A stretch of DNA of 64,000 nucleotides from a virus: IMG/VR virus record IMGVR_UViG_3300035670_000033, positions 1 to 64,000 of that record. The stretch is one strand, 5' to 3'. A program made the translations under genes and the position numbers. Below the pieces are notes generated by a model that saw only the letters and a program-made list of their open reading frames with translations, had not been told where the DNA came from and ran no database searches. How positions within the stretch are numbered: position 1 is the stretch's first letter; every line of letters starts with the position of its first letter. This document shows, piece by piece, positions 3,613-59,704 of this stretch.

Positions 3613-3626
3613 GTTAGGATAAACAC

Positions 3627-4260: not shown

Positions 4261-4261
4261 A

Positions 4262-8976: not shown

Positions 8977-8985
8977 GGAGGAGTA

Positions 8986-9942: not shown

Positions 9943-9951
9943 GGATTAAAA

Positions 9952-18175: not shown

Positions 18176-21100
18176 TTGCTTCAACGGTTCACTTTGGCAT
18201 TTCGGCGTGTGTCAGCGCTCATCGTCTCGTTAGTACTGCTTGCTCTTTTTGTCCCTGTCTCTGCCGCTGAAGCAACATTTACAAGCCTTACAACGATTTC
18301 TGACAGTCAAGGGTTCCTCCAAGGTCAGTTCGCCGAGGTTGGGGTAAGGGCTAATGGTGCTTTTGGTTCAACTAGTGTTCCTACTGGTTTTCATCAAAAC
18401 TCTGGCACCTGTCTAGGTTTCCGCGTAGACCGCGAGATGGACGGATGGGGTGAAACCATTGATGATGGTGACTTCTTTTGTCCGGGTTCCCCTTTTGAAG
18501 GTTGGCAACTCAAAGTTGGTTCAGTAGCCAAAAACGATCACAGTCAAACAGGTGTTTCTGGCTCTGTTTCTGCTCCGCAAGCCTCTGGTTCGTCACAGTG
18601 TGTTTCGTGGGTTAGTGCAAGCCCATATAACGGTGTAAGTGTAGAACAGCGTTACTGTGTGCCAACCGCAGGTCAAGCGCTACACACCGATGTCACACTA
18701 ACGAACACGACAGGTTCTGCCATTTCTGATGTTTATTTTGGTCGCGGTTTTGATCCCGACAACTTCACTGGAACAGGGACAGTTCCCGATTGCGGTGGAG
18801 CACCCGCAAGCACGAGCACTTTTCAATCCTGTAACGCTGTAACAGGTCAGGGGACGGAGGCTCAGGCAACAGCCCGTTGGGGTAACGGTGCGTTTATTGC
18901 TTTACAATCTTTTGATGCTCGTGCCCGTGTAGCGCGTCAGGCGGGTGGTTTTTCTTCACCTGATCCATCAGATATTTGGACTGCTGGCGATACCTCTGCT
19001 TCATCAGGCACATATTACGGGAACATCGGTGAGTTTCAGGCTGACGCTGGTCTTTATGTTGCCCTTAAAGTTGAAACATTGGGCGCTGGCGCTTCAACAT
19101 CTTTCCGTGTTAGTTACGTCCTTTCCGCTGAAGGAAACAACGCCCCAGTAGTTGGTGCGCCAGTAGTTAGCGGAATTGGGCAAACAGGTGCCCATGTTGC
19201 CACAACGATCAACCCTAAAGGTTATTCAACAACAGCAACACTTGTTTATTCAACAAACTCAGACTTCTCTTCTTCGGCTTCTGCGCCAATGGGGACTTTT
19301 ACTGGTAGCGAAGAATTAACGGCTGAAACGGACATAACAGGTCTTGACCCAAGCGAGACTTACTATGCAAAGGTTGTTGCCACTAATGAAACTGGCACAA
19401 CAGAATCGGCATTATTCAACTTTGACACTCTTGATGCGACTGCGCCAATTGTCTCTTCAGAGGAACCAACGGTAACAGTTGATGATGGTCCTGTAACCCT
19501 TTCAGGAACATTAAACCCTAACGGTTTTAGTTCTACTGCAACATTCCAATACAGCACGACTGCCGATTTTTCTGGCACGGTAGTTGATGTCCCTGTTTCT
19601 GGAACTTTTGATGGAACATCACTTTCAACGGTTTCAACAGTTGTTTCAGGTCTGACTGGTTCAACCACATACTACTTCCGTCTTAAAGTAACTAACGACT
19701 CTGGTTCTGCATACGGTTCAACAATTTCTTTTGTGCCAGCAGACATACCTGCACCAACATCTTTGGTCGTAACAAGCCTTGATGACACAACCGCAAACGG
19801 AACACTTCGTTGGGCGATCACTCAAGCAAATGCCACTGCTGGTGGAATTTACGATGAAATCACCTTTGGCGTTGATGGAACAATAAATTTGTCAAGCGCG
19901 CTGCCACAGATAACACAAAACGTAACCATTACAGGTAACGGTAGGGTACAGACAATCATTGACGGTAATAATCTATATCGCCCGTTCAATGTTGGCTCAG
20001 GTAGATCGCTAACGATTTCCAACATGACTCTCAAGCAGGGTCAAGCAACTAACGGCGGTTTGGTATTCAACGGTCAAGGAACAGTTATTGCGACAAACAT
20101 CAGATTTACGGGGATGACTGGTGGTTCTGCCGTATTCAATAACAATGGCGGGTCAACTGCGACTTACACAAACTGTACTTTTGACTACCTCAATAACGGC
20201 ATTGCTGGCGACTATGGCTCAACACCACAACTTGCCACTGGCGTTACAACATGGGCAAGCGAGCCAGACTCGGTTTTCCAAAACAGAACATATGTAGATA
20301 ACTGTGTATTTGACAACAACAATGCTGGTATATACAACTATCGCTTCACAAAAGTAAATAACTCAACATTTACAAATAACAGTTACGGCGCTCATGTCAC
20401 TGGTTTGAATCGCACCCAAATACTGAACTCCACATTCACTAATAATGGTATTGGTGTTTATCACAACTCATGGATCCCTACTTCCTTTAACATGGGAGTG
20501 GACAACCGTTTGATTAGTGGAAACACCTTCACCAATAATGGAATTTCCATCTATCTTGATGACACCTATAACAATGGTCAAAAAAACCAATCGTGGTCAA
20601 CCATCACAGGCAACACATGGGACGCTCTCGGTGTTTGGGTTCGTCACTATCAACACAACGGAACCACGAATGCAGAAGGGACTGCACGCCCTTACACAAC
20701 AGGAACGGTATTCGCACAAAGTTCAAACACATTCCCCGACACAATTATTGCCCCAAGCAACCTAACGGCAACCGATACTGGTACAGGAATTCTTCTTGAC
20801 TGGGATGCACCAGTTGGTGGTGGCTATCTTCCTGAACGGTACGCAATTTCGTGGTCGGGGAGTCTTGGTGGAGGTGGAATCGCTACTGGAAATGTCGGTG
20901 GTGCGAATGCGCTGAATACATCAATTGAAATCCCGTATTCGGTCATCTATTCATTCGGCGAAGAGGGTGAAACATTTGCTTTCCACATCCGCTCAGATAA
21001 TGACACCTACAGTAAGTATTCCGCTAATTCAAATACTGTTTCAATTCAAGTTGGCACTTCTTCAAGTACAACGACTACGACTTCCACCGTTCCCGACGCC

Positions 21101-32574: not shown

Positions 32575-32899
32575 CAGACGAACTCTACACCCTTTTACTT
32601 AAAAGGTCAACACACGTTGCCAAAATCAATAACTATCTTTTCCCGGCCGGACCAGTTAGAGGAAGTTATATCAGTGGTATCAACGTTGATGAAAAACAAA
32701 AGGAACAAACACCAGTTAGTTAATAACTTTGGAGGGTTCGGGAACCTTTACCAAATCTTTTTTGGGGCGCGTGCAGCCGAAACAGGATCCGCGATTTTTG
32801 ACAATCGCAGATTAAGATTTGATTATTGATCGCGCGCGAAAGGTTGTATACGCCACCGTGCATCTTAGATGCTTATCTGCGCTTACTATTTTTTTCGTC

Positions 32900-33175
32900 G
32901 CAGTCCCGTGTGTGTGGTTGTAAAAGATAGCAGACCAACAGCCCCGCCGCACGCACGTTTCAAAAATAAACCACTAGTAACGTAATATTGTGTTCGCAAG
33001 TCCCGTCTACCCGCGGGTAACCACAACATGTTGTGGGTGCGGGATCGCGAAGCGGGGCTATCCCTAGAAATGTGCAGGCATGCAGGCGGGGCTATCAGGT
33101 GTTGATAGGGTGATAGTTATCGGCGGGGCTATGAAGACCCCCATCTGAAGGACTCGTCGTGGTAGCGGGGCTGGG
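32900..33175. other. Origin-like non-coding region with palindromes and 8-bp iteron-like repeats
   Basis: CCACAACATGTTGTGG palindrome at 33021-33036. AGYCCCG at 32902, 32940 and 32999 on its left; GCGGGGCT at 33052, 33086, 33123 and 33165 on its right. Confidence 0.5.
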
Positions 33176-33327
33176 CTGTGAACTTAACGTCGGGTTTAGT
33201 TGCACAGCCCGCCCGTTACTTATCTAGCAATCTTAGTTCAGGCTTTTTATAAGTTGGATGGTTACGCATTGAATGTGTGAGGTCGTTGTTTCCGCCACCG
33301 TTCAATTTGGATAACTTCTTTTTAGTT

Positions 33328-37113: not shown

Positions 37114-37512
37114 TACTTCTCCTTGTTTAGTTAGGTTTATTTGCTTGCCCAATCAGTATGCCTCATGGGTGTAACACAGTTATTTTTAGTAGGGATTTTT
37201 TATTACTCTAACATTATATATAAGACAAAAACAAAAAGCAAGTATCGGATCAAAAAACTTGGAGCGATATTTAGAGCGATATTTAGTGCTAACCCGAGAT
37301 CAGATCACACACCCCAAAGCCCCCGATCGCTGTTGAGGTTTATATACGCCACCGTTCGGTTTAGATACAAGCAAACAACTCATGCTAAATAACAATCGTT
37401 GCAAACTAGACAGCCCCGCATCCCAACAGCCCACCCCGACAGCCCCGCCACTCGCGCGGAAGCGCGGGACTAATGCTCGCGAACAGTTGTTCGCTCAACT
37501 ACTATCGGGACT

Positions 37513-37899
37513 ATGACAATCTCCCGAACAGACAGATGGCAATATCGTTTCAATGCGCTCGTGCAATTCACCAACAGGACAGGTTCGTCGCTTGTTCCCG
37601 CAACACAAGTTGAGGTTTATGAGGGCAAGAATGTTGCGCTTGGTGCGTGGGTCGCATACAACCGTCAGCAATATCGTGCAGGAGAACTACCGATCGTGCG
37701 ACAACAAGCGTTAGAGCAACTTGCAGGTTGGCATTGGGAGAAGCAGAAACCTGGCAGACGCTACGACACGAAGCGAGACGCAGAGATCGCACAGCGTTAC
37801 AAGAGTGGCGAGCGTGTCGGACTGATCGCTGTTAGTTTCAATCTTTCACGGCAACGAGTTCATCAAATACTCAAGAAGGTTTCAACACCCAATGTCTGA
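37513..37899 (+). CDS. Helicase-associated (HA) domain plus sigma-4-like HTH protein
   Basis: WQYRFNAL.QF....G...VP......LGAWV...R..Y..G.L...R...LE.L..W (HA domain), then SFNLSRQRVHQI (HTH). Confidence 0.75.
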   Translation: MTISRTDRWQYRFNALVQFTNRTGSSLVPATQVEVYEGKNVALGAWVAYNRQQYRAGELPIVRQQALEQLAGWHWEKQKPGRRYDTKRDAEIAQRYKSGERVGLIAVSFNLSRQRVHQILKKVSTPNV

Positions 37900-38242
37900 T
37901 TTCAGTAACCATGACAAGCGTGATGCTTGGAAAAAGATGAGTGAGTGGTCTCACAGCATTCCTGATGATGAACTTGACAGTCTGTTTGTTGATGAAGATT
38001 GGGAAGACGAGTGGGCTAATCTTCCGCCCGTGTTGCGTGAAACACGCAGACAGGTATTCGGAAAGTTTATATTCGCTCTGTTTGGTTTATCTGTCGGCGT
38101 TGCTTTTGTGTCGTTCTTGTTGTATCAACTTGTTCAAGCGTTGGGTGTCACCGATCTAACTTTTCGTGAGTCTGTGATCGTCACATTGTGTGTTGCGTTC
38201 ATTCGTTACATTGACGCAGGAGTAATGAAACAGATCCGATAA
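37892..38242 (+). CDS. Two-TM membrane protein
   Basis: Two hydrophobic helices; coupled to the HA/HTH gene. Confidence 0.6.
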   Translation: MSDFSNHDKRDAWKKMSEWSHSIPDDELDSLFVDEDWEDEWANLPPVLRETRRQVFGKFIFALFGLSVGVAFVSFLLYQLVQALGVTDLTFRESVIVTLCVAFIRYIDAGVMKQIR

Positions 38243-38371
38243 ACACATCAGGACGCACTCTTGCGAGTGCGCCCTGAGCGGAGAAGCGAAAGGTGAAAGG
38301 AGAAGTCCTTTCGTTCCTCTAGCGGTAAAGAATAACATATGAGTTATATGTCATTCTGAAGCGATCAGGTT

Positions 38372-39868
38372 TTACCCCAATCGCTTTCCGTTTAGTCGTG
38401 TATATGTTTCCTGCCACTTTCTTGGATACCAACGGTTCGGTTTCTTTCCGACCGAAAGTTGCTTCAACAGTGCAAGTCCGTCATTCACATTGTGTGCCAT
38501 AAACACTTTGTGCTTCAAGACTTCTTTTATGCAGTCCATTGCCAAGATGTCGTGGTATCCACCGTATTGACCGCCTGTGCCAAGACCGTGAACCTGACCG
38601 TCTGTAATCCACACGATCGGAGTTGATGAACGCTTGCGTTGTTTGATCGCCCAACGAATTGCTTCGCCGTCTACGCCGTTGCCACCATTCCGTTCAGGAA
38701 GTTTGTCTACCATTTTCCCATCTTTTGCAAGAATGAGAAGGTTCGGTTTCACATTGTTTCGGTCTGCTGAATAAACCGCAACAGTGCAACCTGGACTTGC
38801 TTCCGTGATGTCAAGAATGTTTTTGTTGTTGAGAGACATTGAACCTGAACCGTCAATCAAGACGATACCGCCGTTGCCTTTCTTGTATCGGTCAAACACT
38901 CGCTTCTCGGGGTCTGCAAGTGCGTTACCAATTCTGCGAGGGTTACGACCCATGTTGCTTGCAACACGCTTGCGACCGAGACCGCCATGCGCTTTGCGAG
39001 TGAGTGGGAGATTACCAACAATAAGTTTTCCCCAAGTCGGTACTGCACCGCTACCTCGTTGTGAAGGTTCAGTCGGTTTTACTTTCTTTGGGTCTGCTTT
39101 CGGTTTCTGTGGTTTATCTGTTGCACCGTTGCCGTTCTTGGTTTCTTTTTCTGCGTTGCCTTCTTGCTTCGCTTCGTTCTCTTGCTTCGCTTCGGTTTCG
39201 CCGTCCTCGTTTTCGTTCTCATCAACAGGTGGGTTTGCCAAACGATCAATCCACTCTGCAATTCGCTCTGTGTGTGCGAACCCCATTGGTGCGAGACCTG
39301 TGCGCTCATCTATTTCTGTTGAACCGAGTGTGCCTGTCTTGTGTGCTTTGACGAACTCTTTCTCCACTGCTTTCACAATGTCTCGGAGTGTTGTTCCCCA
39401 TGCACGATTTACTCTGCGTACACCTGTGAGGAAGTCTTTGCCACCACCACAAACCGAGTAACCGACTGCTGTATAAACCGCACTCGCCCAATCGCCTTGC
39501 TCTGCGACACGCATTCCTGTAGTGAGTTCGCTTCCGTCTGCCAACAGATCAACATCAAACCCTGCTTTCTTGATAAGAAAGTTCACACGAACTTCCTCAA
39601 CAACGATCAGTGCATTCTCTGTTGCGATCTTGCGTTCAATCCACTTCGGGAAGTCGTCCGCAGGTGAGAACCGTGCGTGTGCCATTTCATGCGCACGGAT
39701 TACACGATCAACTTGTTCGTCACCAACAGGAACGACCATGTGCTTTGTAACAACATTGGTCATTGGTTTGCCACGAACAGGTGCGCAAGTATCTACTTGC
39801 CATGCGCCCGAGTCTTTATCTTTGCGCCCCAACATTTCGGGGAGTGGTCTGATTTCTACTTTTTGCAT
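38372..39868 (-). CDS. VWA (MIDAS) domain protein, CobT/MoxR-partner type
   Basis: VLIDGSGSM (DxSxS), WITDG, N-terminal HEMAH metallopeptidase-like motif, acidic linker. Confidence 0.8.
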   Translation of the reverse strand: MQKVEIRPLPEMLGRKDKDSGAWQVDTCAPVRGKPMTNVVTKHMVVPVGDEQVDRVIRAHEMAHARFSPADDFPKWIERKIATENALIVVEEVRVNFLIKKAGFDVDLLADGSELTTGMRVAEQGDWASAVYTAVGYSVCGGGKDFLTGVRRVNRAWGTTLRDIVKAVEKEFVKAHKTGTLGSTEIDERTGLAPMGFAHTERIAEWIDRLANPPVDENENEDGETEAKQENEAKQEGNAEKETKNGNGATDKPQKPKADPKKVKPTEPSQRGSGAVPTWGKLIVGNLPLTRKAHGGLGRKRVASNMGRNPRRIGNALADPEKRVFDRYKKGNGGIVLIDGSGSMSLNNKNILDITEASPGCTVAVYSADRNNVKPNLLILAKDGKMVDKLPERNGGNGVDGEAIRWAIKQRKRSSTPIVWITDGQVHGLGTGGQYGGYHDILAMDCIKEVLKHKVFMAHNVNDGLALLKQLSVGKKPNRWYPRKWQETYTRLNGKRLG

Positions 39869-39956
39869 ATTTCCAACTTTCGTTTCTAGGTTTATGTCTC
39901 TTGCTTAGGGAGGCTTGCTTACACCCCCACCTTACGGCAGGGGTGTAACGAGGTTA

Positions 39957-40700
39957 TTAGACCGCAACCTTGTTGATTGCGATTGCGTCTAGGACGCTTT
40001 CTGCCTGCTTGCCGAACACCATTCGTGCGCTGTCTGCGTCACCGAGTGTCTTTCGCAGTTGGTCAAACGCATAGAAGGTGCGGAGTGAGATCCTGCGCTC
40101 GCCTGCGTCTGCCATACGAACCGCATACTCACGGAGATCTGCCGACAACTTCTTGAGTGCGTCAGGGTGAGGTTGGTTGATACGGATTGCGACAGGGAAA
40201 CGATCTTTCAACGCTTCAGGAAGTTCCTCCATTGTTTCAATGTTGGTGGTCATGACAACGCTGAACCCGTCCTTTGGTGTGATCGTCCGATTGTTTTCAG
40301 GACTTTCCCACTTCGCACTTTCAGGTGAGTCAGTGAATGCGAGGAGTGTTGCGAACACATCTGCGCCTGCTTTGTCAATCTCGTCAATTACGAGACGACC
40401 GCCACGCAAACCGTCACCTTTCCACGCTGACACTGCTTTACCGTCTACCCAAGACCAACCGCCTTCGCCGTTCATCTTGTAGTGACCTTCAACTTGCGCA
40501 TTGGACATATCCTCTGTGCAGATAAGTCGGAATGCACCTGCTGTGACATCACCGTAGTTGAGACCTGCGAAAGTCTTTCCTGTTCCTGGGGGACCGAATA
40601 AGATCAAACGGTCTACGCCTGCTTTGAGTGCGTTCTCAACATCTTTCCAACACTGTGGGAGATCGTTGCGCACCTTTCCTTCTAGTACTTGCTGTTCCAT
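39957..40700 (-). CDS. MoxR/CbbQ-type AAA+ ATPase
   Basis: GPPGTGKT (Walker A), VIDEID (Walker B), MTTN (sensor I), ALKDRF (Arg finger). Confidence 0.88.
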   Translation of the reverse strand: MEQQVLEGKVRNDLPQCWKDVENALKAGVDRLILFGPPGTGKTFAGLNYGDVTAGAFRLICTEDMSNAQVEGHYKMNGEGGWSWVDGKAVSAWKGDGLRGGRLVIDEIDKAGADVFATLLAFTDSPESAKWESPENNRTITPKDGFSVVMTTNIETMEELPEALKDRFPVAIRINQPHPDALKKLSADLREYAVRMADAGERRISLRTFYAFDQLRKTLGDADSARMVFGKQAESVLDAIAINKVAV

Positions 40701-40802
40701 TACTTTCCTTCTTTCTCCGAAGTTCGTTCGGACTAGTTTGCTTATTTCTAGGTTTATTTCCTTACACCCCCAACATTACATTGGGGGTGTAACAGGGTTT
40801 AG

Positions 40803-41210
40803 TTACGCTACTTGCGCTTCTGCTGTTGCCTTGCTGTCGGACTTTGCGCCCTTGAGTTCGGTAACACGGATTTGCTCGTATGCCGTGATCGTGGTTACTG
40901 CGTCTGCGACATCTGCTTTGATTACGCCGACTTCCACTGCTGACTTGAACTTCTTACCGTCCACTGCGGACTTGGTAACAGTCTTGAACACCTTGTCGGA
41001 AACGAGATCCTTCAAGATTTCAACGCTGTATGAAGGACGCTCGCCTTTTACGACTGCAACCTTTACACCGTCTACGACTGCGTAGTCCACGCCTTCTTTT
41101 GCGAGTTCCAACTTGAAACTTGCTTCTGCTTGTGCAAGTTCTTGCTGTGCGATCTCTAATGCTTCACGCTTCGCAAGTACTGCCTTTGCTGTTGATGTGG
41201 TTAGTGCCAT
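40803..41210 (-). CDS. Hypothetical helical protein
   Basis: Own motif-C promoter and AAGGAG RBS. Confidence 0.65.
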   Translation of the reverse strand: MALTTSTAKAVLAKREALEIAQQELAQAEASFKLELAKEGVDYAVVDGVKVAVVKGERPSYSVEILKDLVSDKVFKTVTKSAVDGKKFKSAVEVGVIKADVADAVTTITAYEQIRVTELKGAKSDSKATAEAQVA

Positions 41211-41308
41211 TTGATTTTCTCCTTATGTCTAGGTTTATTTGCTTCTTGCCACCACTGTATATCAGGGGTGTAACACGGTTATTCGTACTGACTTTCTATC
41301 TATGATAG

Positions 41309-41339
41309 ATAGTCTAGTACCTGTTTTTGGACTTGTCAA
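41309..41339 (-). promoter_or_regulatory. Canonical sigma-A promoter (TTGACA-N17-TAGACT)
   Basis: Reverse complement reads TTGACAagtccaaaaacaggtacTAGACT. Confidence 0.6.
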
Positions 41340-41342
41340 GTC

Positions 41343-43465
41343 TTATGCGAGAAACCTCGCAATCCCTGCGTCCGTAAGGTCGTCCCCGATCTGACGCTTT
41401 GCGTCTAAGTCATTCAGGTACTCGCTGACGATCTCGCAGATTTCATCACATTGGTTCTGAATCGCTTCGTGACGCTCACGCTCGTCTGCGTCCTCTAAAG
41501 GGTTCATCACGACTGCGTACGATCTGAACGCCTGTGCGATCAACGCTTGCTCAATGCGCTCTAGTTGTGCTTCTGTGAATGTTGTGATTTTCATTTCTTA
41601 CTCCTTGTTTGTTGGTGTACCTGTAATACGCACGGTGACACGGAATGTGTGACAATCTTTTTTTGGACAGAGTCCAAAAGAGGTTGTGAATAACTCGTTG
41701 AGGTTTATATACGCCACCGTTCAGGTTGGGAGATGACAGTTCGGATCGCCGATCTCCGTGCGCCTGCGCCTGAGAGCCCCGCGTTGTTTACATCTTCCCG
41801 CAAGCCCCGCACCGCATCTTCGGGCGCGGGACTAGGCAAAAATAAAGGGGAGGCTTTCGCCCCCCCCCTTGGTTAGTCCCAAGTGATCAACCCGTTTTCT
41901 GCGATGTAGGTTGGGAGTCCCATACTTTTCAGTTCCTCGTATGTGAAAGGAACTTCTTGGTTCTTGTTGATGTGATCAACATATCCCCTGTTTCTGAGGG
42001 CTTCGTCTGTCATTGCTTCTCCTATGTGTCTAGTAGTTGTATCTCTTATACGCAATATTAGAGCAAGGGTGTGACACAGATAAATAGAAAACTTTCACGG
42101 CCGTGTGACATCACGCTTTATGTGACCGTGTGCGTTATATGTATGTAGGCAAAACCGCCTACCAAAGCGTTAGGAGAAGTAGTTGGAAATCAACTATGAA
42201 GCAATAAAAGAAATGACCCGTGCGTTGAAGCAAGAAATTGCAAGAAACGGGATCAACGAAAACAATTCGCAGTGGGTTCACGAAATGCGAGTTGCGATTG
42301 AACTTCGTGAAAGCGGTGTCTACTAGAACCGCCAACAAGACCCCAACTCGGAAACGGGTTGGGGTTCTTTTTTGCCATAGCCCCGCGATCTGATGCGGTT
42401 GCCGCACAGCCCCGACATCCGATGCGCGACGCGGGACTGAGACAAAAGAAAACCCGCAGAAGATGGTTGGTCTCCTGCGGGTTCTTGATTTAGTTGGTTG
42501 TTTCGCGGACTATCTGAAAACGATCGCCTTCTTCGGTAATCATTCCGAGAGTGCTTCCGTTGTCCCATTTGATGTGAACCGTGCCAAGTCCGTCAATGTG
42601 GGTTACGAGACCTTCGTCGCCCCACTTCAACCTCGTGTACGGGTCGCCTGACCGCATAAACATTACTCGCTTACCGACATAACTTTCTTTGTCTGACATT
42701 AGTAGACCCCGAAAGATATTCCGTCTGATGTCATTCCGAACAACGCACCTGCGTCGTTCCCTTCTGTATCCATTGACGGGTAGAGGATTGTTCCGCTAGA
42801 GAGAACGAGAACCATAGGGATTTCTCGTTTGCGCCAACCTTCTTTGTTCATTTCCGCTTTTGTCATTGGACGAATGTCAATGATTGTTGATCCGATCATT
42901 GAGTCGTCTACGGTTTCTGCTTCGTATGTACTGCTCATGTGCTTTCTCCTTTGTTTAGGTTTATATGAAGCGTCTCGCTGTTACACGGACGCTTTTAGTG
43001 GTGACTTGATGTCTGCTAGTTCACGCTCTAACTCTGCACCTTCGCAGTTGTTCATAAGGTCAATCAAATTATCTAACCATGTTGCAACGGACGCAGGAAG
43101 TGGTGTCGTGCTGAGATAGTTGGTGTACTTGTTGAGTACGATGTCAATCTCGGTAACGAGTCCTGCTCCTTCAACATTGTTTGTGATGTCAAGGATTTCT
43201 GTGATTAGGTTGATGTAACTTTGCTTTTCCATTTTTATTTCCTCTCGTTTTGTTTTACAAATCTGACACACTCTTTTTTCGTGGACGCATTGAACGCCTG
43301 ATTGCCTGTTGCGATCTCAATAACAACCCACCAATCGGTTTTGGTTTCGTGAAACCAAACATCATTGAACCCTCTTTGCATAAACCGTTGGTGAAACCTT
43401 TCGCATTCAGGGTGTTCGCACGGTGACTCTTGGATCTCTTTTTCTATCCTGTAAGTGCTGTTCAT
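41343..43465 (-). CDS. Small leftward hypothetical genes (41343..41594, 41873..42013, 42490..42699, 42699..42938, 42981..43232, 43235..43465)
   Basis: Each has an RBS and/or a motif-C promoter; no family recognised. Confidence 0.6.
41838..41870 (-). terminator. Intrinsic terminator
   Basis: GC stem with GAAA loop followed by TTTATTTTT on the minus strand, just after 41873..42013. Confidence 0.75.
42183..42326 (+). CDS. 47-aa rightward miniprotein
   Basis: AGGAG RBS, TTG start, LEINYEAIKEMTRALKQEIARNG...GVY*; followed by a terminator. Confidence 0.55.
   Translation: MEINYEAIKEMTRALKQEIARNGINENNSQWVHEMRVAIELRESGVY
42338..42373 (+). terminator. Intrinsic terminator
   Basis: ACCCCAAC..GAAA..GTTGGGGT stem followed by TCTTTTTT. 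Confidence 0.8.
42444..42483 (-). terminator. Intrinsic terminator
   Basis: AACCCGCAG/CTGCGGGTT stem with a minus-strand U-tract, after 42490..42699. Confidence 0.65.
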
Positions 43466-43654
43466 TTCTATCTCCTTGTCTAGGTCTATATAGATATGTT
43501 ACCCAAGCGGTGTAGCAGGGTTATTCGCCCTGCCACCTGAACCCACGACACTCTCGCTTACTGCGCTTCTTGCGCTTGTCTGCGACACGCTGTGCCTTCA
43601 GGATATTGCGATCTGCAAACGCCTGACGATCTGCCTCACTCCATTGCTTGCTCA

Positions 43655-44137
43655 TTAGAACCTTCTCCTATTCTTTGTCCATTCGTGACAACTATGTTTT
43701 GCTTGCTCATCTACTTGCTCTTGTGACATTCCTGCCTTGATCAACGGACGGTATCCGCATGAGTTGCACGAAACGCCGAGGTACTCGGTGACACCTTGTG
43801 CGATCTGATATGCGTGAACGGTCGTGTTGCCGTGTGTGCGCTCATTCAGATAAACCGTGATGAACACTTCGCAATTCGCACAACCGATGATCTTGACATC
43901 TTTGCCGTCTGTTGGTGCTTGCTTTGGAAAGAAATCAAACTTGAAGTGTTTGCAGGTTTCGCACTTGTCATCAAGTTTGCGAACCTTTGCCACTTCTACT
44001 GCACCTTCGGTTACTGCTTTCCAATGTGCAGGAAGTATCCCTTTCTTTTGTGCTTGCTCAACGAGGTGGTTGCGAACCGCCCATTGTGCGTAAGGCTTGG
44101 CTACTTTTGTTGCCTTTGCCTTTTTGATCTTTGCCAT
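43655..44137 (-). CDS. Cys-rich (Zn-binding) hypothetical protein
   Basis: CETC, CANC and CNSC pairs; ATG 44137 after an AAGGAG RBS. Confidence 0.6.
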   Translation of the reverse strand: MAKIKKAKATKVAKPYAQWAVRNHLVEQAQKKGILPAHWKAVTEGAVEVAKVRKLDDKCETCKHFKFDFFPKQAPTDGKDVKIIGCANCEVFITVYLNERTHGNTTVHAYQIAQGVTEYLGVSCNSCGYRPLIKAGMSQEQVDEQAKHSCHEWTKNRRRF

Positions 44138-44272
44138 TTCTAGTACTCCTTGTTTAGGTTTATCTAACTCGCTAATTACACTATATACGCAGGGTGTCAC
44201 ATAGTGTGTGATCTTTTTAGATCTAAATAATAAATATACTTCTAATATATCAGGGGCATAATATCCCCAACC

Positions 44273-44293
44273 TTGTCCACAGCCTGTGGATAA
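44273..44293. promoter_or_regulatory. Inverted DnaA-box pair TTGTCCACA-gcc-TGTGGATAA
   Basis: Both 9-mers match TTWTNCACA or the actinobacterial TTGTCCACA; preceded by an AT-rich tract at about 44210-44265. Confidence 0.6.
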
Positions 44294-44736
44294 CTAGATC
44301 ACGCAACTCCATTTAGCACTAAGTCAAACGATCAGCAGGCTATATACGCCACCGTTCAAGTTGGGTGATGTCTTGATGTCTTGATGTCGGATCGCCCGAT
44401 CCCATAGCCCCGCGCCATCCGTCGCACGGCGGGGCTAACAAGTCTCGCATCCGTTCGCGGGGCTGTCGCCGTCGGATCTTCGGTTTGTTGGGATAGTGTT
44501 GGGATATGGCTATGCCCTTCAGTCCCAAGCATTCCACTAACTTGCAGATCGGCGAAGTTATTGACGCGCTCGCGCAAACTGAGCCCGATCTATTTGGTGA
44601 AGGTAACGCGACACTAATGCCCGTGCAATACTCTGATCGTCTCGCGTTAGTGATATGCGATCGTTCGCTAGGGGAGTCCATAAACGCTAATAGCCCGCCT
44701 GCCTAACGGCGGACGGGCTACGACACTGCGGACTAT

Positions 44737-46112
44737 TTACTTATTGCGTTGCGACTCTGCCCATAGGTGACGGAATACGAACGCAGGTATCGCGTTGCCG
44801 TCATCCGTGAAGTAGTAACCATTGTCAAGTGTTGAATGATCGGGGATAGTGACGATCCGTCTATTGCTAACGCGACCACGATACCAATATCCAATGATAA
44901 AGATATTGTGATCGCTTGTCGTCTCCCATTGCCAACGCGAAGTGCCGACATATCCCTTATAGGTGAGTTGCGTTGTCATTACTCAACCGCCTGAATCATC
45001 GCGAAGATAGACGGAGACGCCGTAGTGATTCCGTGCGCGTAATCCGTGACTAGGTGCAACATATAATTGTCGCGTTCGTCCTGATCCCATGTCTCTGCCC
45101 AAGTGGTGCGATCGTTGTCGTCCCAATTCATTGTTGAGTTAATGAATATCTCTGCCTTCGTTGGTGGAGTTGAGTTGAGTGTGTATCTCATAATTTGCCC
45201 TTCGTGTAGTAGTTGTGTTGGTAATCGGCTTGCGCCTTGTGCCTAGTTGGAATTGAATCCCACGCCGAACGCGCTAGGCGACTCACCTAAGTGAGTGTGT
45301 TAGATCGCGACCGCTTCGCTGTAACGAAGTGTGCCATCGCCACCCATTGCGATCTCGGTCGCGCGTAACCATAGGTCGCGCACGACTTCATTACCGCGTG
45401 CCCACGAAGTTAAACATCCGAGAACTTCAGTCTCAAACTCCGCGAGTGCTTTATCCGAGTATCGCTTAACCGACTTACGGATAAGAGTTGCGAACGGATA
45501 ATTTACGCGATCGTAAACACCAACCAATTCACTTGTCTGATCGTAGTGTCGCAACGCGATGGACGACATGAGTTGCTTATTATCCGCATCGTGCCAAATT
45601 GTGATACGCACTAAAGTGCCCATTGGTCTGCCATCCACTTCAACCGAGTCACAAGTCGGACTCTTAAGTGTGTAGGTGATCTCGCGATCTTTAACCTTGC
45701 GTGTCGCTTGCGCTAACACTGTATTGTGACTAACAATTAAATTACTCATTATTTATCTCCCGTGTCTAGTTGGTTTATGTTTATTACTTACTATCTATAT
45801 TACGCAACGGGTGTTGCATAGTGTGACATTGCCTGATTAGTCATGATCTGCGAGTTTGACCCAATGCATACCGACCCAACCATCAGGTGTGCGCATTGAG
45901 TTCAGGTGTCCGCCTTCAATGATTGAACGGATAAGACTGAACAATTCCCGCGACAAGTCGTCTCGCGTAATATCCATTGCGTCTACCCATTCATTGTCGT
46001 AACGATTCTGCGTAAGATCGTCAATTACTGATCCAACGATCTCCATGCCGATCGCGCCGATACCGAGATAATTCTCTGCCAATACTTCGCTTAGTGATTC
46101 ATCTAGTGCCAT
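44737..46112 (-). CDS. Small leftward hypothetical genes (44737..44979, 44979..45191, 45300..45749, 45837..46112)
   Basis: ORFs with RBS; two have motif-C promoters. Confidence 0.55.
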
Positions 46113-46696
46113 GTCTATTCCTTGTCTAGTAAGTGTAAGCGTTATTGCTTACTCCCCAATAATACGCAATGGGTGTTGCAGAGTGTGACATTGCCATTCT
46201 GCAATATCGCGTATCCGCTATATCCGTGATCCGATATCTACGATCCGATATACGGTTTATATGCGCTACCGTTCAGGTTGGGGACTTGGATCGGCGATCC
46301 GCCCGCCCGCGTGCGCCCGCGAGCCCCGCGCGCTAAATGGGGGCGCGGGACTGTCAAGTTTTTTGGGGCAAACAGTAGCGTTTGCAGTGTCGCCTTACCC
46401 TCCTGTGACGCATATGAGCCCCGCGTGTTTACACGGGATGCGGGGCTGTGGGCAGGGGAGCCAGAGCCGCGGGTTGGGGAAGCCGCTGAGCGGCTTCGCC
46501 GTCGGTATCTGTATCTGAACTGAGACAATTACGAGAACCTGCCGCGCACTCAAACAATCGTTGAACACTATTCTGAACGCGTTACCGACATTGCAGTGGT
46601 TAGAACTCGCGTGAGAAGTAGCGTCCATGATGTGTGAGTGGCACGGTGCGCTCAACCTAGATAGCCGTGAGACGCACTACAAGCCCCCTAGAAACG

Positions 46697-46726
46697 CAAA
46701 AGCCCCCACCCCGAAGGGTGAGGGCT
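46697..46726 (-). terminator. Intrinsic terminator (UUCG tetraloop)
   Basis: Minus strand AGCCCTCACCC-TTCG-GGGTGGGGGCT-TTTG, after the DUF6011-like gene. Confidence 0.75.
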
Positions 46727-46747
46727 CGCGCCTGCGTTAGGAACTAA

Positions 46748-47236
46748 CTAGATGTTCCTTGCGCACACGGGTCCGATACCCCGTGCTACCGAGTTTGGGT
46801 CGGAAAGTTCCGCACCACACACGCAACAGATACCGAACTCATGCCCTGCCTCCTGCGCCTGTGCGAGGGTCATGCGATCCTCTGCGGAGAGACGGAACAA
46901 CCCGCCACGCTCGTAGGTGAAACGCTCTGCCTTGACAGGTGCGAGAGGGTTGTAACGCATTGCGTACAGGTTGCCTGACTGCCGTGAACGCTTTACACGG
47001 AACACAACGCCGTCCTTGCGGTACATACCGATCTCGGTAACAGGGTTTGCCTGTACGACCCGTGCAGGACGATTCATGTTGCGCTCAACCGCCTGCAACT
47101 GCTTGTCGGATAGACGACCGAAACGATCGTAACCATTGAGGACGCTCGTAAAGAATGCATTGCCAAGTGCGTTGTCACGCAGGAACTGAACTACACGCTC
47201 CTCACGGGTGAGTGGTGGAAGTGTCTGAACTGACAT
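46748..47236 (-). CDS. DUF6011-like Zn-finger protein
   Basis: C-terminal CCVCGAELSDPNSVARGIGPVCA. Confidence 0.75.
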   Translation of the reverse strand: MSVQTLPPLTREERVVQFLRDNALGNAFFTSVLNGYDRFGRLSDKQLQAVERNMNRPARVVQANPVTEIGMYRKDGVVFRVKRSRQSGNLYAMRYNPLAPVKAERFTYERGGLFRLSAEDRMTLAQAQEAGHEFGICCVCGAELSDPNSVARGIGPVCARNI

Positions 47237-47804
47237 AGGTAACTCGCTTTCGTTAGTAGGTTTATTTGCTTACCCTGAATATACGCACAGGGTGTAACAG
47301 AGTGTGCGATACCCGATCGGGGGCGCAGATCGCAGGCACGGCGTTCACCGCAACCTGACAAACCGATTCCGTTGCATGGCTGAGACTTATATCCGCCACC
47401 GTTCAAGTTGGGGACTCAGATCCGCGATCCGCCTCCGCGCTACGCGCCCGCCCGCCCCCACAGCCCCGCGAACTACGCGGTCACGCGGGACTATCAGCAT
47501 CAGCAGAAAGAAGAAGACAAGCCCAGTTGGGAACGTTCCGGCTGACGTCCCGGCGAACGTCATCAAAAACGTTACTTTTTACGCGTTTTGAAAAACATCA
47601 ACTTTTGCTAATTTTTCTGGTTTTTTGAAAGCCTTATACCATAAGGGTTTTACGGGGTGACTTATTGAGGTTTGTAGAAGAAACGAATAAACTGTCAGAA
47701 AGAACAACTTTTTGGGACTCCGGCTGCCGGGCTGGTCTTCAGCCAGTTCCGAAGATGGGCTGATAGCCCCGCGTTATTGTCTGCGCGGAAGTTTGACGCG
47801 GGAC

Positions 47805-50006
47805 TTAGAAGAGAGTTGGCGCATCGTCAAATGCGTTGCGGGTTTCGGTGCAGATTTTGTGTGCGTAACCGAGTGGTGCTGAAGGGTTCCGAGGCGTCCC
47901 TAAGTATCTGCCGTCTTTGTGTTCTAACCAAGCGACAACCTTGACGCAGTATGCCGTGTTCAGGGTGTCTAGCCCTGTGTTGCAGATGGAGCAGGTGACT
48001 TTCATTTATGCGGTTGCTTCTGCCTTTAGTGGTGCGACGATCACGGAAAGTAGATCTTCTACAGGGAACTGTAGGTCACTATGCGACCTGATGTCAAGGA
48101 GTAGATCAACCATTTCCGATGATGATACGAGTTCACGACCCGAGATCTGTTTGATCGCGCTGTCAATGAGTTCGGTGATGGTGCTAATTTTTTGTTCTGT
48201 TTCCAAGAGACTTCTTCTTTCTAGGTGCAATAGTTGGTAGATAGTTTATCGCATAATCGTAAGTATGACGCAGACAAACGATGTGGTCGTTGTACACCGA
48301 GAGTGCTGTAGAGCACCCTTCTAGTGCACAACGACGAACGCCGTTGCCATCTGTTTTGGGTTTGAGAACGGTGTTACTCTCCAAGTTTCGCCCACTCTTC
48401 GTCGCCGATGAGTTCTGATGCTTGCAGTATTGCTTCCTCTATATCAAAGTGCACGCAGTTCAACCAACCCGCTTCACCAACTGTGTCGTCGTCTGCGTAC
48501 AGATCAAACCATGCGTTGTTGTCAAACTCAATGCGTTCTTCGTCTATTGCTTTCTGCAACTGCTCATCTGTTTCAATGCCTACTTCTGCGAGACGGTCGG
48601 AGTATCTGATCACCTGATAGTTCGCATTGTCAATGCGCGCTTCTTTGCTGTCCCAAACATGGAGACGCATTTCGCCATCGCAGTAAACGCTGATGGTGCG
48701 GTCTTTGTAGGTAACCCGTGCCACGAGTTGGTGTGCATTTGCGTCCCAAACATAGAACGCAGGGTCTTTGCAGAACTCTCGCTCATGCGGTGACTGTTCT
48801 CGGGTGATAATTAGGTCTTGCATTACTTCTCCTTGTTTCTAGTAGTTGTACCAAGAGTAATACGAGGGTGTTGTACGGTTACGCCTTTCCTAACAACGCC
48901 AATGCTTCATCTATTTCTATGGTGGTCTTGATGGAGTGATCGCCGTCGTATGCAACGGTGACATAGTTTGCGCCAACGGACGGGTTCTCTGCGAGATCGC
49001 AAATAGACCCGTACGCTTGCGCAACTGCGTCTAAATGGTTGTCTGCTTCATAGACCATTGACCAAGTGACGATGTACTGCATTAGACGGACAGACTTTCC
49101 TGCCATGAAAACATTGGTGAAACACCGAACTCGTCTTTTACGGAACGGGTGCTGACTTCAACATCAACTTTGTATTGCTCTAACGATGCGAGGATATCTG
49201 CAAGTTCCGCCTTGTCGGTTGCGATGCGGTAACGCAACTCGTGCATACGGGTATTTAGGGTCTCAAATGTTTGCTTTTTGTTACGGAGTTTCATTACTTA
49301 TCTGCCTTTCGGTCTGCTTGTGGGTCTCTTATTTCATACTGACGACCTTCTCGTTTTACGAAGATGTCAGGACGATCTTGAACGATCTTGCGGACGGTTG
49401 CTTCTGATATGTCGCCAATTTCCGCAAGTTCTTTTACTGTCACCAAGTCAAAGACATGGTTTTTGCACCAAGACAAGATGTCTTGCTTGCCGTCTTGTGC
49501 CGTGCGCCAACCTTCACTTGGTTGTGCCTGTGCCAAGAGTTCTGCCTTGATGTTGTTTGGTACGAGATCACGGACACGCTTAGGTACTTGCGCAACCCAA
49601 ACAGGTTTCCCATAGGTGTTGATCGCTTCAGTAACTTCGCGTATCGCGTCGTCTAGTTGTGTGTCTACTTCGTTGCTCATAGTGTCTACTATACGCAACG
49701 GGTGTGACAAAGTGTGTGATCCCATTAGAACGGTTCTGCTGTTCGCATGGACTCAGGTACTACAAGTGCGCTTTGTGCTTCGTTCAGTACCGTCATTGTC
49801 TGAGAAATGATGTTGCTGGTTTTTAGTACTGCGCCCTTGAACACCGCTGACTGTTCTTGTGTGCCAACTCGTGATAGTTCTTGTTCAAGAACTTCGTAAA
49901 TGCTGTGTATCGCTTTCTCAATGCGACTCAAACTTGCTGAGTCCGCATCAAAGATCTGTGCGAGTGTTTGTGTTCTTTCCATCTGCTTTTTATATACCCC
50001 TTTCAA
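47805..50006 (-). CDS. Small leftward hypothetical genes (47805..48005, 48006..48230, 48374..48823, 48879..49082, 49082..49294, 49294..49680, 49725..50006)
   Basis: Contiguous ORFs; 49294..49680 has a C-terminal HTH-like segment (TVKELAEIGDISEATVRK). Confidence 0.55.
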
Positions 50007-50271
50007 GGTCTAGGTTTATCTAACAGTATCATTATATACACGGACTTGTCAAATAGCAACCTCGCCACAAACAAATGTTCGCCCACCCCTCCCAAAACTT
50101 TTATATAAGCCACCGTTCGGTTTGGGGTAATTCTTCCCCCTCCTGCTGTTGGGGCAGATCTCGCCCGCCTCCCTAGTCCCGTCGCGGATTTCTTCCGCGG
50201 GGCTGTAAAACTTTGACTTGCAAATCTCAGATGACTCGGATAAACTAAACAGGTACTAGAAATGGGGTGAA

Positions 50272-50871
50272 ATGATTCAAGAAGAACTAAAAGTTTTAGA
50301 AGAAGTCACTAAACAATGGGTTTTGTGGCGCAAAAATAACAACATTCAGAAGAACTCGTGCATTTTGGCGTGCAACTTTGCGCATCAACTGCTGATCCGT
50401 TTGGGTTTGGAACACGAGGTTATTCCCGTCGGGACTACAGTCTTCAACCGCAAAGGGTGGGAGATGTTTGGGATCCCTGCCAACCGACTTCCTGATGATG
50501 CGTGGACAGTCCATTGTTCAAGCCAAACAACAGGTTCAGGTTTTGGTGGACACACCGTAATACATACGGAGAACTACTTTCTAGATTTGACGGCATTGCA
50601 GTTTTCTCGTCCTGAGCACGAAATCTTCGTCGGAGAAACCTTGATAGTCCCGTTAGAAAAGATGGAAGTCTTTGAGCGGGGCTCACAACCTCACGCAATT
50701 CACCTTGCGTTCCGTACCGACAAGTTTTGGACTTTCCCGATCGGTTCAGGTTTGTATTCGTACTACCTAGAGAAGTGGAACACGATCTACCGTAAGTCAC
50801 CCGATTGGAACATCTCGGCAAAGGAGTTAGGTATCCCGAGCATTATTGAGGAAATGCGGAAGGGTTCTTGA
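50272..50871 (+). CDS. Hypothetical protein, possible Cys-His-Asp (transglutaminase-like) fold
   Basis: NSCILAC...GGHTVI...YFLDLT spacing. Confidence 0.45.
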   Translation: MIQEELKVLEEVTKQWVLWRKNNNIQKNSCILACNFAHQLLIRLGLEHEVIPVGTTVFNRKGWEMFGIPANRLPDDAWTVHCSSQTTGSGFGGHTVIHTENYFLDLTALQFSRPEHEIFVGETLIVPLEKMEVFERGSQPHAIHLAFRTDKFWTFPIGSGLYSYYLEKWNTIYRKSPDWNISAKELGIPSIIEEMRKGS

Positions 50872-51715: not shown

Positions 51716-53650
51716 GTGTCAGAGAAATACCTCTTCCTAGCCGACGACCATTTAGTCTCAACCTCGCCATACGACCGAGAAGAAGTTGAACAAATCAAAG
51801 CCATCAACGGCGCAAAGTGGGACAAAGTAGCCAAAGCGTGGCGTATCCCAATGTCTTCAGTTGTTGAAGCGCGGGACTTCGGAATGCGCAACGGGTTCAC
51901 CATAGACCCTCAGGTTCTGACATTTGATCTTCCTGAGAAACTCAACCCAATCTTCGGTGTCACCCTAGAAAAAGACTTTATTTATATGTCCTTTGCTTAC
52001 GACCCTGTGAAAGTCAAAGCAGTCAAGGAGATTCCGAGCGTAACTTGGCACGCAAAAACCAAAGCGTGGCGTGCACCCGTAGCAAGTATCGCCGAATGCA
52101 TCAGTTGGGCAGAGAAGTTCAACCAACAAGTCCCAAACAACCTGAGTGATTTGGCTTCCAAACTCAAAGAAACACACGACGCTTCCGTGCAACAGTCCCG
52201 ATCCGTAGATGCGGATCTAGAAGTCGCGGGACTCCCACTTCTTCCATACCAGCGAGCCGGAGTGAAATACGCGTCAGCAGCCAAAAGATGCTTTATTGCT
52301 GATGACATGGGACTCGGGAAAACCTTGCAGGCGATTGCAACTTTGGAATATGTTTGGGATTCCTACCCTGCGATTGTTGTTTGCCCACCCAACTTGGTGT
52401 TGAATTGGCAGAAAGAATACGCCAAATGGCTACCTGAAAAGAAAGTCGTAACGGTTATAGACCGCAAAACCTTCCCCGAACATAAAGACTTTGATGTTCT
52501 TGTTATTGGATACTCTAACATTTCTCATTGGCAAAAGCAAATCACCAACTTCAGGTCACTCGTGCTTGATGAGTCACATTACGTTAAATCTCCAACGTCT
52601 CAGAGAACCAAAGCCGCCATCAAGATCGCCAGAACAGTCCCGAGTGACGGAATCGTGTTGTGTCTCACCGGAACACCTGTGACAAACAGACCAGCAGAGT
52701 ACGCATCTCAGTTAGACGTTCTGGGGAAACTAAACACGTTTGGTGGACTTTGGGGTTTTTACCGAAGATATTGCGGTGCTTTCAGAGACAGGTTTGGTCA
52801 ATGGAACATCAACGGCAACTCAAACTTAGATGAACTCAACGAAAGATTACGCGGAAACTGTTATATACGAAGAACCAAAGAGCAGGTCCTCAAAGATCTT
52901 CCTCCCGTGCGGCACGCAAACATCGTCGTGTCTGGTAGCCCCGCGCAGATGGCGGAGTACCGTAAAGCAGAGCGGGACATCGTGGAATATTTGGTTGAAC
53001 GCGCCAAGCAGATCGCGTTGGAAATCGGTAAATCGCCTGGGTCCGCAGCCGTCGTCGCACGCATAAAAGCCGAATCTAATGAACATTTAGTTCGTATTTC
53101 TGTGCTCAGGAAGTTGGCGGCAAGGGCAAAGATGGAATCAGTTATTGAGTTTATTGAATCTCACAGAGATGCTGGTTTGAAAGTGGTTGTTGCGGCTCAC
53201 CACCGAGAGATTGTTGATGAATTGGCAAACAAGTTTGGGGGGCTGAAGATCCAAGGAGGGATGCTGGTCTCAGATGTGGAAGATGCGAAGTCCCGTTTCC
53301 AAGAACAGCCGACGGAAGACGCACCCGTAATTGTTTTGTCCATCCAAGCCGCCAAAACCGGGCACACCCTGACGGCTGCCCAAGATGTTCTTTTTGTTGA
53401 ACTTCCTTGGACACCCGCAGATGTTGACCAAACCTATAGTCGTTGCCATCGTTTGGGACAGCAGGGTTCTGTGACCGCAACCTATTTGTTGTGTGAAGGA
53501 ACTGTTGATGAGGAGATTTACAACCTGATCAGCCGCAAACGTGGAGTCGTTGATGCGGCGACTGATGGCGGGGCTGTGGAGCGAAAGCAGGAGTCGGTTG
53601 GTCAGATGATTGTTGGGATGTTTGCGAAGAGGGGACTTGATGGCATATAG
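51716..53650 (+). CDS. SNF2-family helicase/annealing translocase
   Basis: ADDMGLGKT, LDESH, LTGTP, RRTK and SRCHRLGQ helicase motifs. Confidence 0.93.
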   Translation: MSEKYLFLADDHLVSTSPYDREEVEQIKAINGAKWDKVAKAWRIPMSSVVEARDFGMRNGFTIDPQVLTFDLPEKLNPIFGVTLEKDFIYMSFAYDPVKVKAVKEIPSVTWHAKTKAWRAPVASIAECISWAEKFNQQVPNNLSDLASKLKETHDASVQQSRSVDADLEVAGLPLLPYQRAGVKYASAAKRCFIADDMGLGKTLQAIATLEYVWDSYPAIVVCPPNLVLNWQKEYAKWLPEKKVVTVIDRKTFPEHKDFDVLVIGYSNISHWQKQITNFRSLVLDESHYVKSPTSQRTKAAIKIARTVPSDGIVLCLTGTPVTNRPAEYASQLDVLGKLNTFGGLWGFYRRYCGAFRDRFGQWNINGNSNLDELNERLRGNCYIRRTKEQVLKDLPPVRHANIVVSGSPAQMAEYRKAERDIVEYLVERAKQIALEIGKSPGSAAVVARIKAESNEHLVRISVLRKLAARAKMESVIEFIESHRDAGLKVVVAAHHREIVDELANKFGGLKIQGGMLVSDVEDAKSRFQEQPTEDAPVIVLSIQAAKTGHTLTAAQDVLFVELPWTPADVDQTYSRCHRLGQQGSVTATYLLCEGTVDEEIYNLISRKRGVVDAATDGGAVERKQESVGQMIVGMFAKRGLDGI

Positions 53651-58904: not shown

Positions 58905-59704
58905 ATGGCTGAAACCCCCACCCCACAAGAACTAATCTCCCGAATGCCCGAGGATTTCGTTGACTTGGTAGGTCGCTTTATCTCCGACCCCGATATAAAC
59001 ACCGACCACCTTGATGTCCAAGAACTAATGCCTGCACCACCGTGTGTAGCGTTGATTGCCAACCATTTGGGTCTAGAAAAGGAGCCACTCGGGACTGCTG
59101 AGTTGGATCAGGCTAAAGCGTGGCTAGACGAACAAGCATCTTGGCAGGACAGGTCTTTTGCGGTTCAAAAGAAACTCGCAGAAACAGCCCCCTTCGGCGA
59201 ACAAGAAGCACTAAAAGGCGAAATCCCTTTGTGGATGAACGCAAAATGGGCTCCGATGCTGTTATTTCAGTGGTCAGACGGATTGCGTGACGCAGTTCTA
59301 CAAGCAGAAGAATATGTGGAAGAGGTTCTATGAGCGACATCAACGACAACTTGGAAGTAGCGATGAACAAAGTCGCAGAAGACTTGACTCCCACCCGATC
59401 GCGTGCGGTTGGGAAAAAGAAAAAAAGCGAAGACGGGACTGAACTTTCTTCAACAGCACAAGAACAGGTTTTGTTCCGTGCAACAACTGAAGACAAACAA
59501 AAGTGGGAGGAATGCGCCAAACATTTGGGTATTTCTATGGCTGAGTTCCTTCGTGTTTCCGCAAACGAAAAGGTTGATAACACGATGAAAGGGTGCGAGC
59601 ATCCGCTTTCTTTCCGTCGTTCATTTCCGTGGATGGAAGAATGCTTGAAGTGTGGTGTTCGCCTCCGCAACGAAGATCAAACAAATCATCAAAACCGTCG
59701 CTAA
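58905..59704 (+). CDS. Two hypothetical genes (58905..59333; 59330..59704, RHH-like)
   Basis: Coupled ORFs; the second has VLFRATTEDKQKWEECA.HLGISMAEFLR. Confidence 0.55.

Follow-up and report, generated by a model that had tools for sequence, protein, structure and literature searches.

The stoperators of Cluster A mycobacteriophages are 13-mers that occur genome-wide, in an orientation that follows transcription and whose reversal abolishes function, and the L5-type repressor carries two DNA-binding domains in one chain (PMC9283540). In phi29 a dimer of the early protein p4 binds pseudo-inverted sites of the form CTTTTT-15 bp-AAAATG, with a spacer that is not conserved; the half-sites are systematically unequal, and the sites are clustered before early promoters (PMC3100819). 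The T4-type PeSLs, each an early promoter with a terminator stem-loop, and the repeats of halovirus HF2 form composite repeated cassettes on either side of small accessory early genes, coinciding with the boundaries of indels between close relatives (PMC2839356, PMC4122927, PMC8707807). Here we describe an 8-bp word, AGYCCCGC, which occurs singly and as inverted pairs in a large uncultured freshwater phage, IMG/VR record IMGVR_UViG_3300035670_000033 (G000 below). The window analysed is the first 64 kb of this 138,071-bp record, a genome estimated to be 97% complete, and positions are those of the window. Comparison was made with four related whole phages of 100-160 kb (G001, G002, G004 and G005) and with part of a fifth.

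Results

Distribution of the octamer

Taking the core AGYCCCG as the single-copy unit of the 8-bp word, we found all 49 copies of the 138-kb genome between positions 32902 and 61422, a territory that takes in small early genes on the - strand (32.5-50 kb) and replication and recombination genes (50-62 kb). Markov models of order 1-3 predict four to five cores in these 28.5 kb and 9-14 in the other 108 kb, where there are none. Each of the four related whole genomes likewise has 45-61 cores in one region of 28-35 kb and none outside it (7-15 expected). Both forms of the core are confined: across four independent genomes AGCCCCG was counted 116 times and AGTCCCG 104 times inside the region, and neither was found once outside, where the word is absent on both strands. 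Enrichment inside is about 10-fold, and the next most region-specific unrelated 7-mer reaches a ratio of only about 8-fold. The octamer does not differ between phages whose GC contents range from 45% to 62%. A position matrix built from 338 sites carries information only at the seven defining positions and at position 8 (C 64%, T 21%), an 8-bp content that would match the size of a single helix-turn-helix (HTH) footprint. This regional confinement is more striking than the pairing, to which a first-pass annotation of the window had drawn attention.

Inside the region 59% of cores are intergenic, as against about 23% of the DNA; in G000 the count is 32 of 49, including copies upstream of promoters. 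The 108 intragenic copies are divided between 47 sense and 61 antisense. Positions are also retained, since 11 of 19 octamers of G000 are kept at orthologous gene positions in G001/G005 compared with 8-10% for control words, and with G004 included the figures are 11 of 28 and 8.2% (p = 6e-6). The SNF2 helicase gene (51716-53650, + strand) holds seven octamers, six of them at positions common to at least one of G001 and G005. Judged from the sequences, the feature is non-random and conserved across the phage family.

Inverted pairs and their geometry

Matches to the pattern AGCCCCGC-N(10-30)-GCGGGRCT lie at 37441, 41803, 44406, 46322, 46417 and 47462 with a 15-bp spacer (N15) and at 47765 with N25, whereas 100 dinucleotide-preserving shuffles, used as the null, gave no match. 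The first-pass annotation had listed a seventh N15 site at 42408; six of the seven match exactly, and at 42408 the left arm reads AGCCCCGA, with one mismatch. The N25 variant and a further N14 variant, AGTCCCGT-N14-GCGGGGCT at 50175, are both present as it described, as are additional left arms at 37412, 41775 and 42379, which lie 29, 28 and 29 bp upstream of their pairs.

The pair at 37441-37471 (AGCCCCGC and GCGGGACT, found by the pattern search) thus has a third arm at 37412-37419 on the + strand, and a fourth, TCGGGACT at 37505-37512 on the - strand, abuts the ATG of the candidate gene described below. The pair at 41803-41833 starts directly past the tail of a - strand terminator (stem 41869-41844) and has its third arm at 41775-41782 (+), while the cluster at 42379-42438 comprises three arms, that at 42379 and the N15 pair 42408-42438. 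At 44406-44436 the arms are perfectly palindromic, and a mirror-image third arm (44457-44464, - strand) lies 28 bp from the arm at 44429. The other N15 pairs are at 46322-46352, at 46417-46447 within a 635-bp non-coding gap, and at 47462-47492; the N25 pair occupies 47765-47805, and the N14 pair, at 50175-50204, marks the divergent junction of the - and + gene blocks. Two more pairs are intragenic, N22 at 50646-50683 and N24 at 52194-52233 in the SNF2 helicase gene, and both are kept in G002 and in locus L073.

A census of inverted spacers in 10 related genomes and loci gave 52 at N15, nine at N16, two at N14 and 24 at N22-25, with none below N14 and with the divergent orientation rare (9); the relative G004 has mostly N23-28 spacers. 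The spacer had been described as fixed at 15 bp, and this length is indeed the dominant mode across relatives, but it is not absolute. The N15 and N24-25 modes lie about one helical turn apart, as had been proposed. Inverted half-sites at a fixed spacing, with N15 dominant and a second mode at N22-25, are the arrangement expected of a dimeric HTH operator. The pair itself, originally taken as the unit, gives way here to the single 8-bp word: about 55% of copies are singletons, that is, arms with no inverted partner better than random controls. The site statistics, the strand independence, the conservation and the architecture of the sites are established.

Direct arrangements also occur. Four copies on the - strand at 33052-33172 are spaced by 34, 37 and 42 bp, with further cores nearby at 32902, 32940 and 32999, in a 640-bp gap beside a replication-initiator-like gene. 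One metatranscriptome contig, X17, joins 32993 to 33118 and skips 124 bp of this array (window 32994-33117), with an octamer 5-6 nt away from either end of the junction; it is a lone contig of low depth at 90% likeness, and the skip is probably a strain variant. Four riverine metatranscriptomes mapped on 32-52 kb yielded few short contigs, mostly intragenic, which leave the pairs uncovered and so are uninformative on pair transcription.

Cassette context

The pairs sit at the boundaries of gene cassettes; they come just past intrinsic terminators, and a conserved box (GAACGGTGGCG...) follows 48-84 bp downstream of them. The terminator scan confirmed that the 42379-42438 cluster lies between two convergent intrinsic terminators, one on the + strand (stem 42339-42366, T-tail to 42376) and one on the - strand (stem 42485-42449, tail to 42439), and the cluster exactly occupies the gap between them. 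Because canonical terminators precede them, the DNA of this cluster and that of the two pairs past terminator tails is probably untranscribed. The pairs are not intrinsic terminators themselves, as had been argued: the loop would be 14-25 nt, against 3-8 nt in such terminators, no T-run follows on either strand, and the scan calls their neighbours and not the pairs.

The box is an 18-bp element, GAACGGTGGCGTATATAA at 37340-37357 (- strand), and is one of 11 copies, at 32531, 32844, 33286, 33818, 34390, 37340, 41705, 44340, 46257, 47387 and 50101, all on the - strand, where the genes of the 32.5-50 kb stretch are encoded. Six copies have a pair or an arm 48-58 bp upstream. Written at greater length the box reads (CC)CAAnnTGAACGGTGGCGTATAYAA, with its copies between 32531 and 50118. 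Its core ACGGTGGCG is kept in all relatives and its flanks vary, being TTGACGGTGGCGGAAAGC in G001, G004 and G005 and GAATAGGTGGCGAGACAGC in the IMG/VR contig L124. Neither a T7-like RNA polymerase nor sigma70 region 2 was found in the genome, so the box is not obviously a phage-polymerase promoter. Nor is it securely a promoter, since a sigma70-like promoter with a conserved leader sits further downstream, near start codons; the sigma70 scan called few promoters, and a good one lies downstream of the 50101 box and outside it. A sigma54 or extracytoplasmic function (ECF) promoter was considered for the box and dropped, as the spacing is inconsistent across relatives.

A second conserved leader was observed just upstream of early gene starts, of the form GTGTTACACCC...GCGTATAT(T/A)...AAATAAACCTAA...AGGAG on the - strand, with copies at about 47300-47240, 44215-44150, 41640-41600, 37190-37120 and 50059-50025. 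Of the sigma70-like hexamers in the region the best are in this leader, such as TTGCTA-17-TATAAT at 50059-50031, and the true early promoters may lie here rather than in the box. Between pair and box are a GATC-rich palindrome and CCCAAC. The palindrome, of GGATCGNCGATCC type, is found in four or five cassettes (at about 41744-41757, 44375-44390, 46290-46305 and 47420-47435) and could be another operator or an element that responds to methylation, the latter because the phage encodes several DNA methyltransferases. Pairs and boxes are also held by long non-coding gaps of 635-770 bp in a genome that is otherwise tightly packed (46113-46747, 47237-48005 and 32575-33215), and these gaps could also encode small RNAs.

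The cleanest cassette arrangement is that of L124 (13.9 kb, 62% GC), where positions 1-10100 carry 16 consecutive small acidic open reading frames (ORFs) with one cassette each: the ORF is followed by GAATAAAGATAGC and, about 25 nt on, by a perfect AGCCCCGC-N15-GCGGGGCT; then come four pyrimidines, a gap of about 40 nt, GAATAGGTGGCGAGACAGC and GCTAACAYCG. The upstream 13-mer, GAATAAAGATAGC, resembles the box minus its GGTGGCG core.

Candidate binding protein

On associative evidence, the best candidate for the octamer binder is the predicted 128-residue product of the gene at 37513-37899 (+ strand), which has an N-terminal HA domain (Pfam, E = 6e-14) and a C-terminal HTH with the recognition helix SRQRVHQI; matches to HTH_28, HTH_7, Mor and sigma70 region 4 are sub-threshold. 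An AlphaFold2 model (pLDDT 87) has a three-helix HTH at the C-terminus. Sequence and fold matches are weak and all are to DNA-binding HTH domains, namely KorA/ArdK, resolvase and IstA; the best PDB sequence match, itself weak, is to ArdK/KorA-domain proteins (E = 0.04, sharing ...LSRQRV...), with local fold matches to 7bcb and 7bca. Joint Genome Institute (JGI) gene calls on sister contigs confirm the gene and the 395-bp gap upstream of it.

In every one of the five genomes the HA+HTH gene is inside the octamer territory. Its start is preceded, within about 100 bp, by three or four arms in G000, G001 and G002, one of which contacts the ATG in G000 and G002, and in G005 a pair lies upstream. 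In the 80 IMG/VR loci that encode the protein we counted 986 cores, compared with 226 expected. The helix, (L/I)SRQR(V/I)HQI, is invariant among homologues of 38-98% overall identity, and because every homologue has the same helix a covariation test of helix and word is impossible. An NCBI copy of the protein (P0005, 91% identical) is filed under a Verrucomicrobia metagenome-assembled genome, which either points to the host phylum or reflects a phage contig that was binned wrongly.

Other features of the genome

The block at 38372-40700 (- strand) encodes a 498-residue protein (phrog_33218) and an AAA_5 (MoxR-like) ATPase, a conserved pair that is the best-conserved early-region block in all five genomes, with identities of 57-95% and 62-96%. 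A 1546-residue ORF at 18176-22816 (+) has no PHROG match, in a genome without a recognisable RNA polymerase or sigma factor. Besides the candidate binder, HTH proteins are encoded at 49294-49698 and 59330-59704. A search for tRNA genes found none. The phage is present in subsurface, river and lake metagenomes, and its relatives in IMG/VR number roughly 224. A scan of cellular genomes for the asymmetric pair returned lone scattered matches in unrelated taxa, with no cellular array and no clue to the host, and literature searches with the octamer strings yielded nothing beyond primers and unrelated sequences.

Discussion

We put at roughly 55% the probability that AGYCCCG(C>T) is the element through which a phage-encoded, double-stranded DNA (dsDNA)-binding protein regulates the early region globally. 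The sequences indicate recognition of individual words in dsDNA with a preferred head-to-head geometry. Sequence-specific recognition at this level is suggested because more than half of the octamers are singletons, both strands are avoided outside the region, copies are retained at orthologous positions and the spacer modes differ by a helical turn. With the adjoining terminators, the same observations support the earlier proposal of a DNA-level element, putatively a protein recognition site.

We infer that a protein binds these sites, which protein it is and in which direction it regulates. One protomer would occupy one octamer; a pair would hold two protomers head-to-head at N15, or one helical turn wider at N24-25, and some sites would take an extra third protomer 28-29 bp away. 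About 50 such sites would mark the early and middle third of the genome, dense at cassette boundaries, past terminators and 50-85 bp upstream of the GGTGGCG box and the promoters that follow it, present also inside early and middle genes and purged from the late two-thirds. A single regulator would then control early-region transcription globally, its bound sites serving as operators or as roadblocks by which early cassettes are shut off or insulated, and the HA+HTH product would in addition regulate the gene that encodes it. Under such a regime any stray site among the late genes would be harmful, hence the purge from the late region.

Several observations weigh against this reading. In distant relatives (G004 and many IMG/VR loci) no arm lies upstream of the HA+HTH gene. 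Homologue searches returned no altered helix, and one of the search patterns contained the helix itself. The GGTGGCG box is equally invariant and could be the HTH target instead of the octamer. The region is called early from gene content only, and a crude test of third-codon-position conservation was not significant (p = 0.16). Searches with DNA, helicase and terminase found no near or distant cultured relative, which is why an annotated homologue of the octamer element is absent. The distance from pair to box is loose, at 31-118 bp, and does not fit a classical activator; a phase-dependent activator is therefore disfavoured, and an operator, roadblock or insulator fits better. To these must be added the asymmetry and folding energies of the arms, given below with the RNA hairpin.

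Site sets such as matS/MatP, parS/ParB-KorB and Noc/SlmA are confined to, or excluded from, chromosome domains. The octamers may, as a minority possibility, form a domain-marking system of this kind, in which a dedicated protein folds, insulates or silences the early third as a unit, a viral counterpart of matS/MatP or Noc/SlmA. Were this so, it would mean single-switch shut-off or segregation of the early region across a large freshwater phage family. The version in which a protein on about 50 sites folds, bridges or localises the early third and transcription control is secondary seems to us rather unlikely. The absolute exclusion of the word from two-thirds of the genome in five genomes speaks for architectural marking, as do sites away from promoters (between convergent terminators, in long non-coding gaps and in genes), and the multi-arm clusters and four-copy direct array suggest higher-order complexes. 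However, no protein resembling ParB, MatP or Noc was identified, phages offer no precedent, and the association with box and cassette boundaries is simpler under transcription control.

It is quite unlikely that the pair works as RNA, an 8-bp G+C-rich stem with a 15-nt loop on - strand transcripts that would serve as a 3'-end stabiliser, a terminator without a U-tract or a processing site for a sequence-specific RNA-binding protein. The pairs do lie at the 3' ends of gene cassettes, and in L124, where no canonical terminator is visible, 16 of 16 pairs are followed by four pyrimidines. The box-distal arm is usually of T type and the proximal arm of C type (T/G 22 vs C/A 4), an asymmetry that is the main point in favour of an RNA role, since the transcribed strand has G-U wobbles where its complement has C-A mismatches. 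Hairpins fold at -17.0 to -21.3 kcal/mol on the transcribed strand vs -11.1 to -20.3 kcal/mol on the other, and for the asymmetric C/T pairs (n=6) the values are -17.0 to -21.3 kcal/mol on the - strand vs -11.1 to -19.7 kcal/mol on the + strand. Yet most octamers cannot form a hairpin, because they are partnerless arms, and the intragenic copies are equally sense and antisense while both strands are purged outside the region. What is conserved is the identity of the arms, beyond mere complementarity, and their Y/R combinations match independent arm preferences and not compensatory change. Strong canonical terminators lie upstream of two pairs, and one pair is flanked by convergent terminators; the spacers shift by about one helical turn instead of varying freely, and Rfam (E <= 1) on 32-62 kb gave two sub-threshold chance matches only.

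The first-pass annotation had offered a dimeric protein or recombinase site. The former stands as a prediction; the latter has no recombinase domain in the genome to support it, searches for tyrosine recombinase (PF00589) and serine resolvase (PF00239) having given no match in the 97%-complete sequence. We regard as doubtful, therefore, the proposal that the pairs are sites for shuffling early cassettes, either by a dedicated recombinase in the style of integrons or shufflons or by short homology as in T4-type PeSLs, with sites elsewhere avoided as lethal. In its favour, blocks of homology between G000 and a relative end 0-8 bp from pair edges (41834, 46320, 46353, 47459-47470 and 47765), gene content of G000 and G002 differs exactly in the pair-rich 44.6-47.5 kb, L124 resembles an array of 16 small genes with one cassette between each, and the PeSLs are a precedent (PMC2839356, PMC4122927). 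Whether breakpoints in gene content map to the sites had been proposed as a check, and a modest excess does exist, with 12 of 75 distinct intergenic breakpoints within 8 bp of an octamer edge against 8.7% under the null (1.8-fold, p = 0.03); it could be explained, however, because the octamers are conserved islands in fast-diverging spacers, where such an excess is expected anyway. The 15-bp spacer and the perfect arms are not those of a tyrosine-recombinase core, with its crossover spacer of 6-8 bp, or of an attC site, with its extrahelical bases; conserved pairs and singletons lie within the essential helicase gene, and 8 bp of identity is too short for efficient homologous exchange.

That the word is the target of a host or phage nuclease, purged late and tolerated early or used there as decoys or nick sites, is very improbable: each of five genomes wholly avoids the 7-mer across about 100 kb, as restriction sites may be avoided, but avoidance leaves the 10-fold enrichment, fixed-spacer pairs and positional conservation unexplained, and no matching nuclease was identified.

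To our knowledge, almost nothing is known of temporal control in large uncultured phages. Here one 8-bp word splits genomes of 100-160 kb into a marked early and middle domain and a word-free late domain. If confirmed, regulation through this word would represent a new multi-site logic, region-restricted and orientation-free with fixed N15 pairing, to be placed beside the stoperators and phi29 p4, and would supply a compact protein/operator pair whose genomic footprint is unusually strict. It would also provide a signature by which early regions of this widespread family of freshwater phages could be located directly in metagenomes.

Among known systems, the IncP and IncW plasmid regulators KorA/ArdK resemble our candidate in being small HTH proteins with repeated operators at many promoters of one functional region. 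The similarity extends over only about 30 residues, however, the N-terminal HA domain is unrelated, and operator sequence and geometry differ, in a plasmid and not a phage. The PeSLs share with the cassettes described here a composite repeated element, in our case pairs plus box, between small - strand genes, and L124 has 16 such cassettes in succession. In contrast, PeSLs contain no separate protein-site word, whereas here the pairs at 41803 and 42408 come after canonical terminators that are elements of their own, and the conserved 8-bp word also occurs alone and inside genes.

The p4 sites of phi29 have short inverted arms, a 15-bp spacer and unequal half-sites, as seen here in the T/C arm asymmetry. 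They number only four, all in a single control region of 200 bp; p4, which has no HTH, recognises A-tracts by indirect readout, and its system lacks the singletons, the intragenic sites and the genome-wide avoidance. The stoperators are likewise a short asymmetric word in tens of copies (49 here), at promoters and in intergenic gaps, with one phage-encoded reader, here a candidate, and that reader has two domains, as would the HA+HTH protein. They differ in that our word is 8 bp long, is confined to a third of the genome and is often arranged as inverted N15 pairs; it also has no orientation bias inside genes, and its intergenic copies are mostly inverted pairs. Stoperators are read by an immunity repressor of the L5 gp71 type, whereas the switch here would be from early to late and not one of lysogenic immunity, since the phage has no integrase and looks virulent. 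Ten-fold regional enrichment together with absolute exclusion elsewhere is seen in none of the stoperators, p4 sites or PeSLs. The stoperators are nonetheless the closest functional analogue of the octamer system, and the p4 sites of phi29 its closest geometric one.

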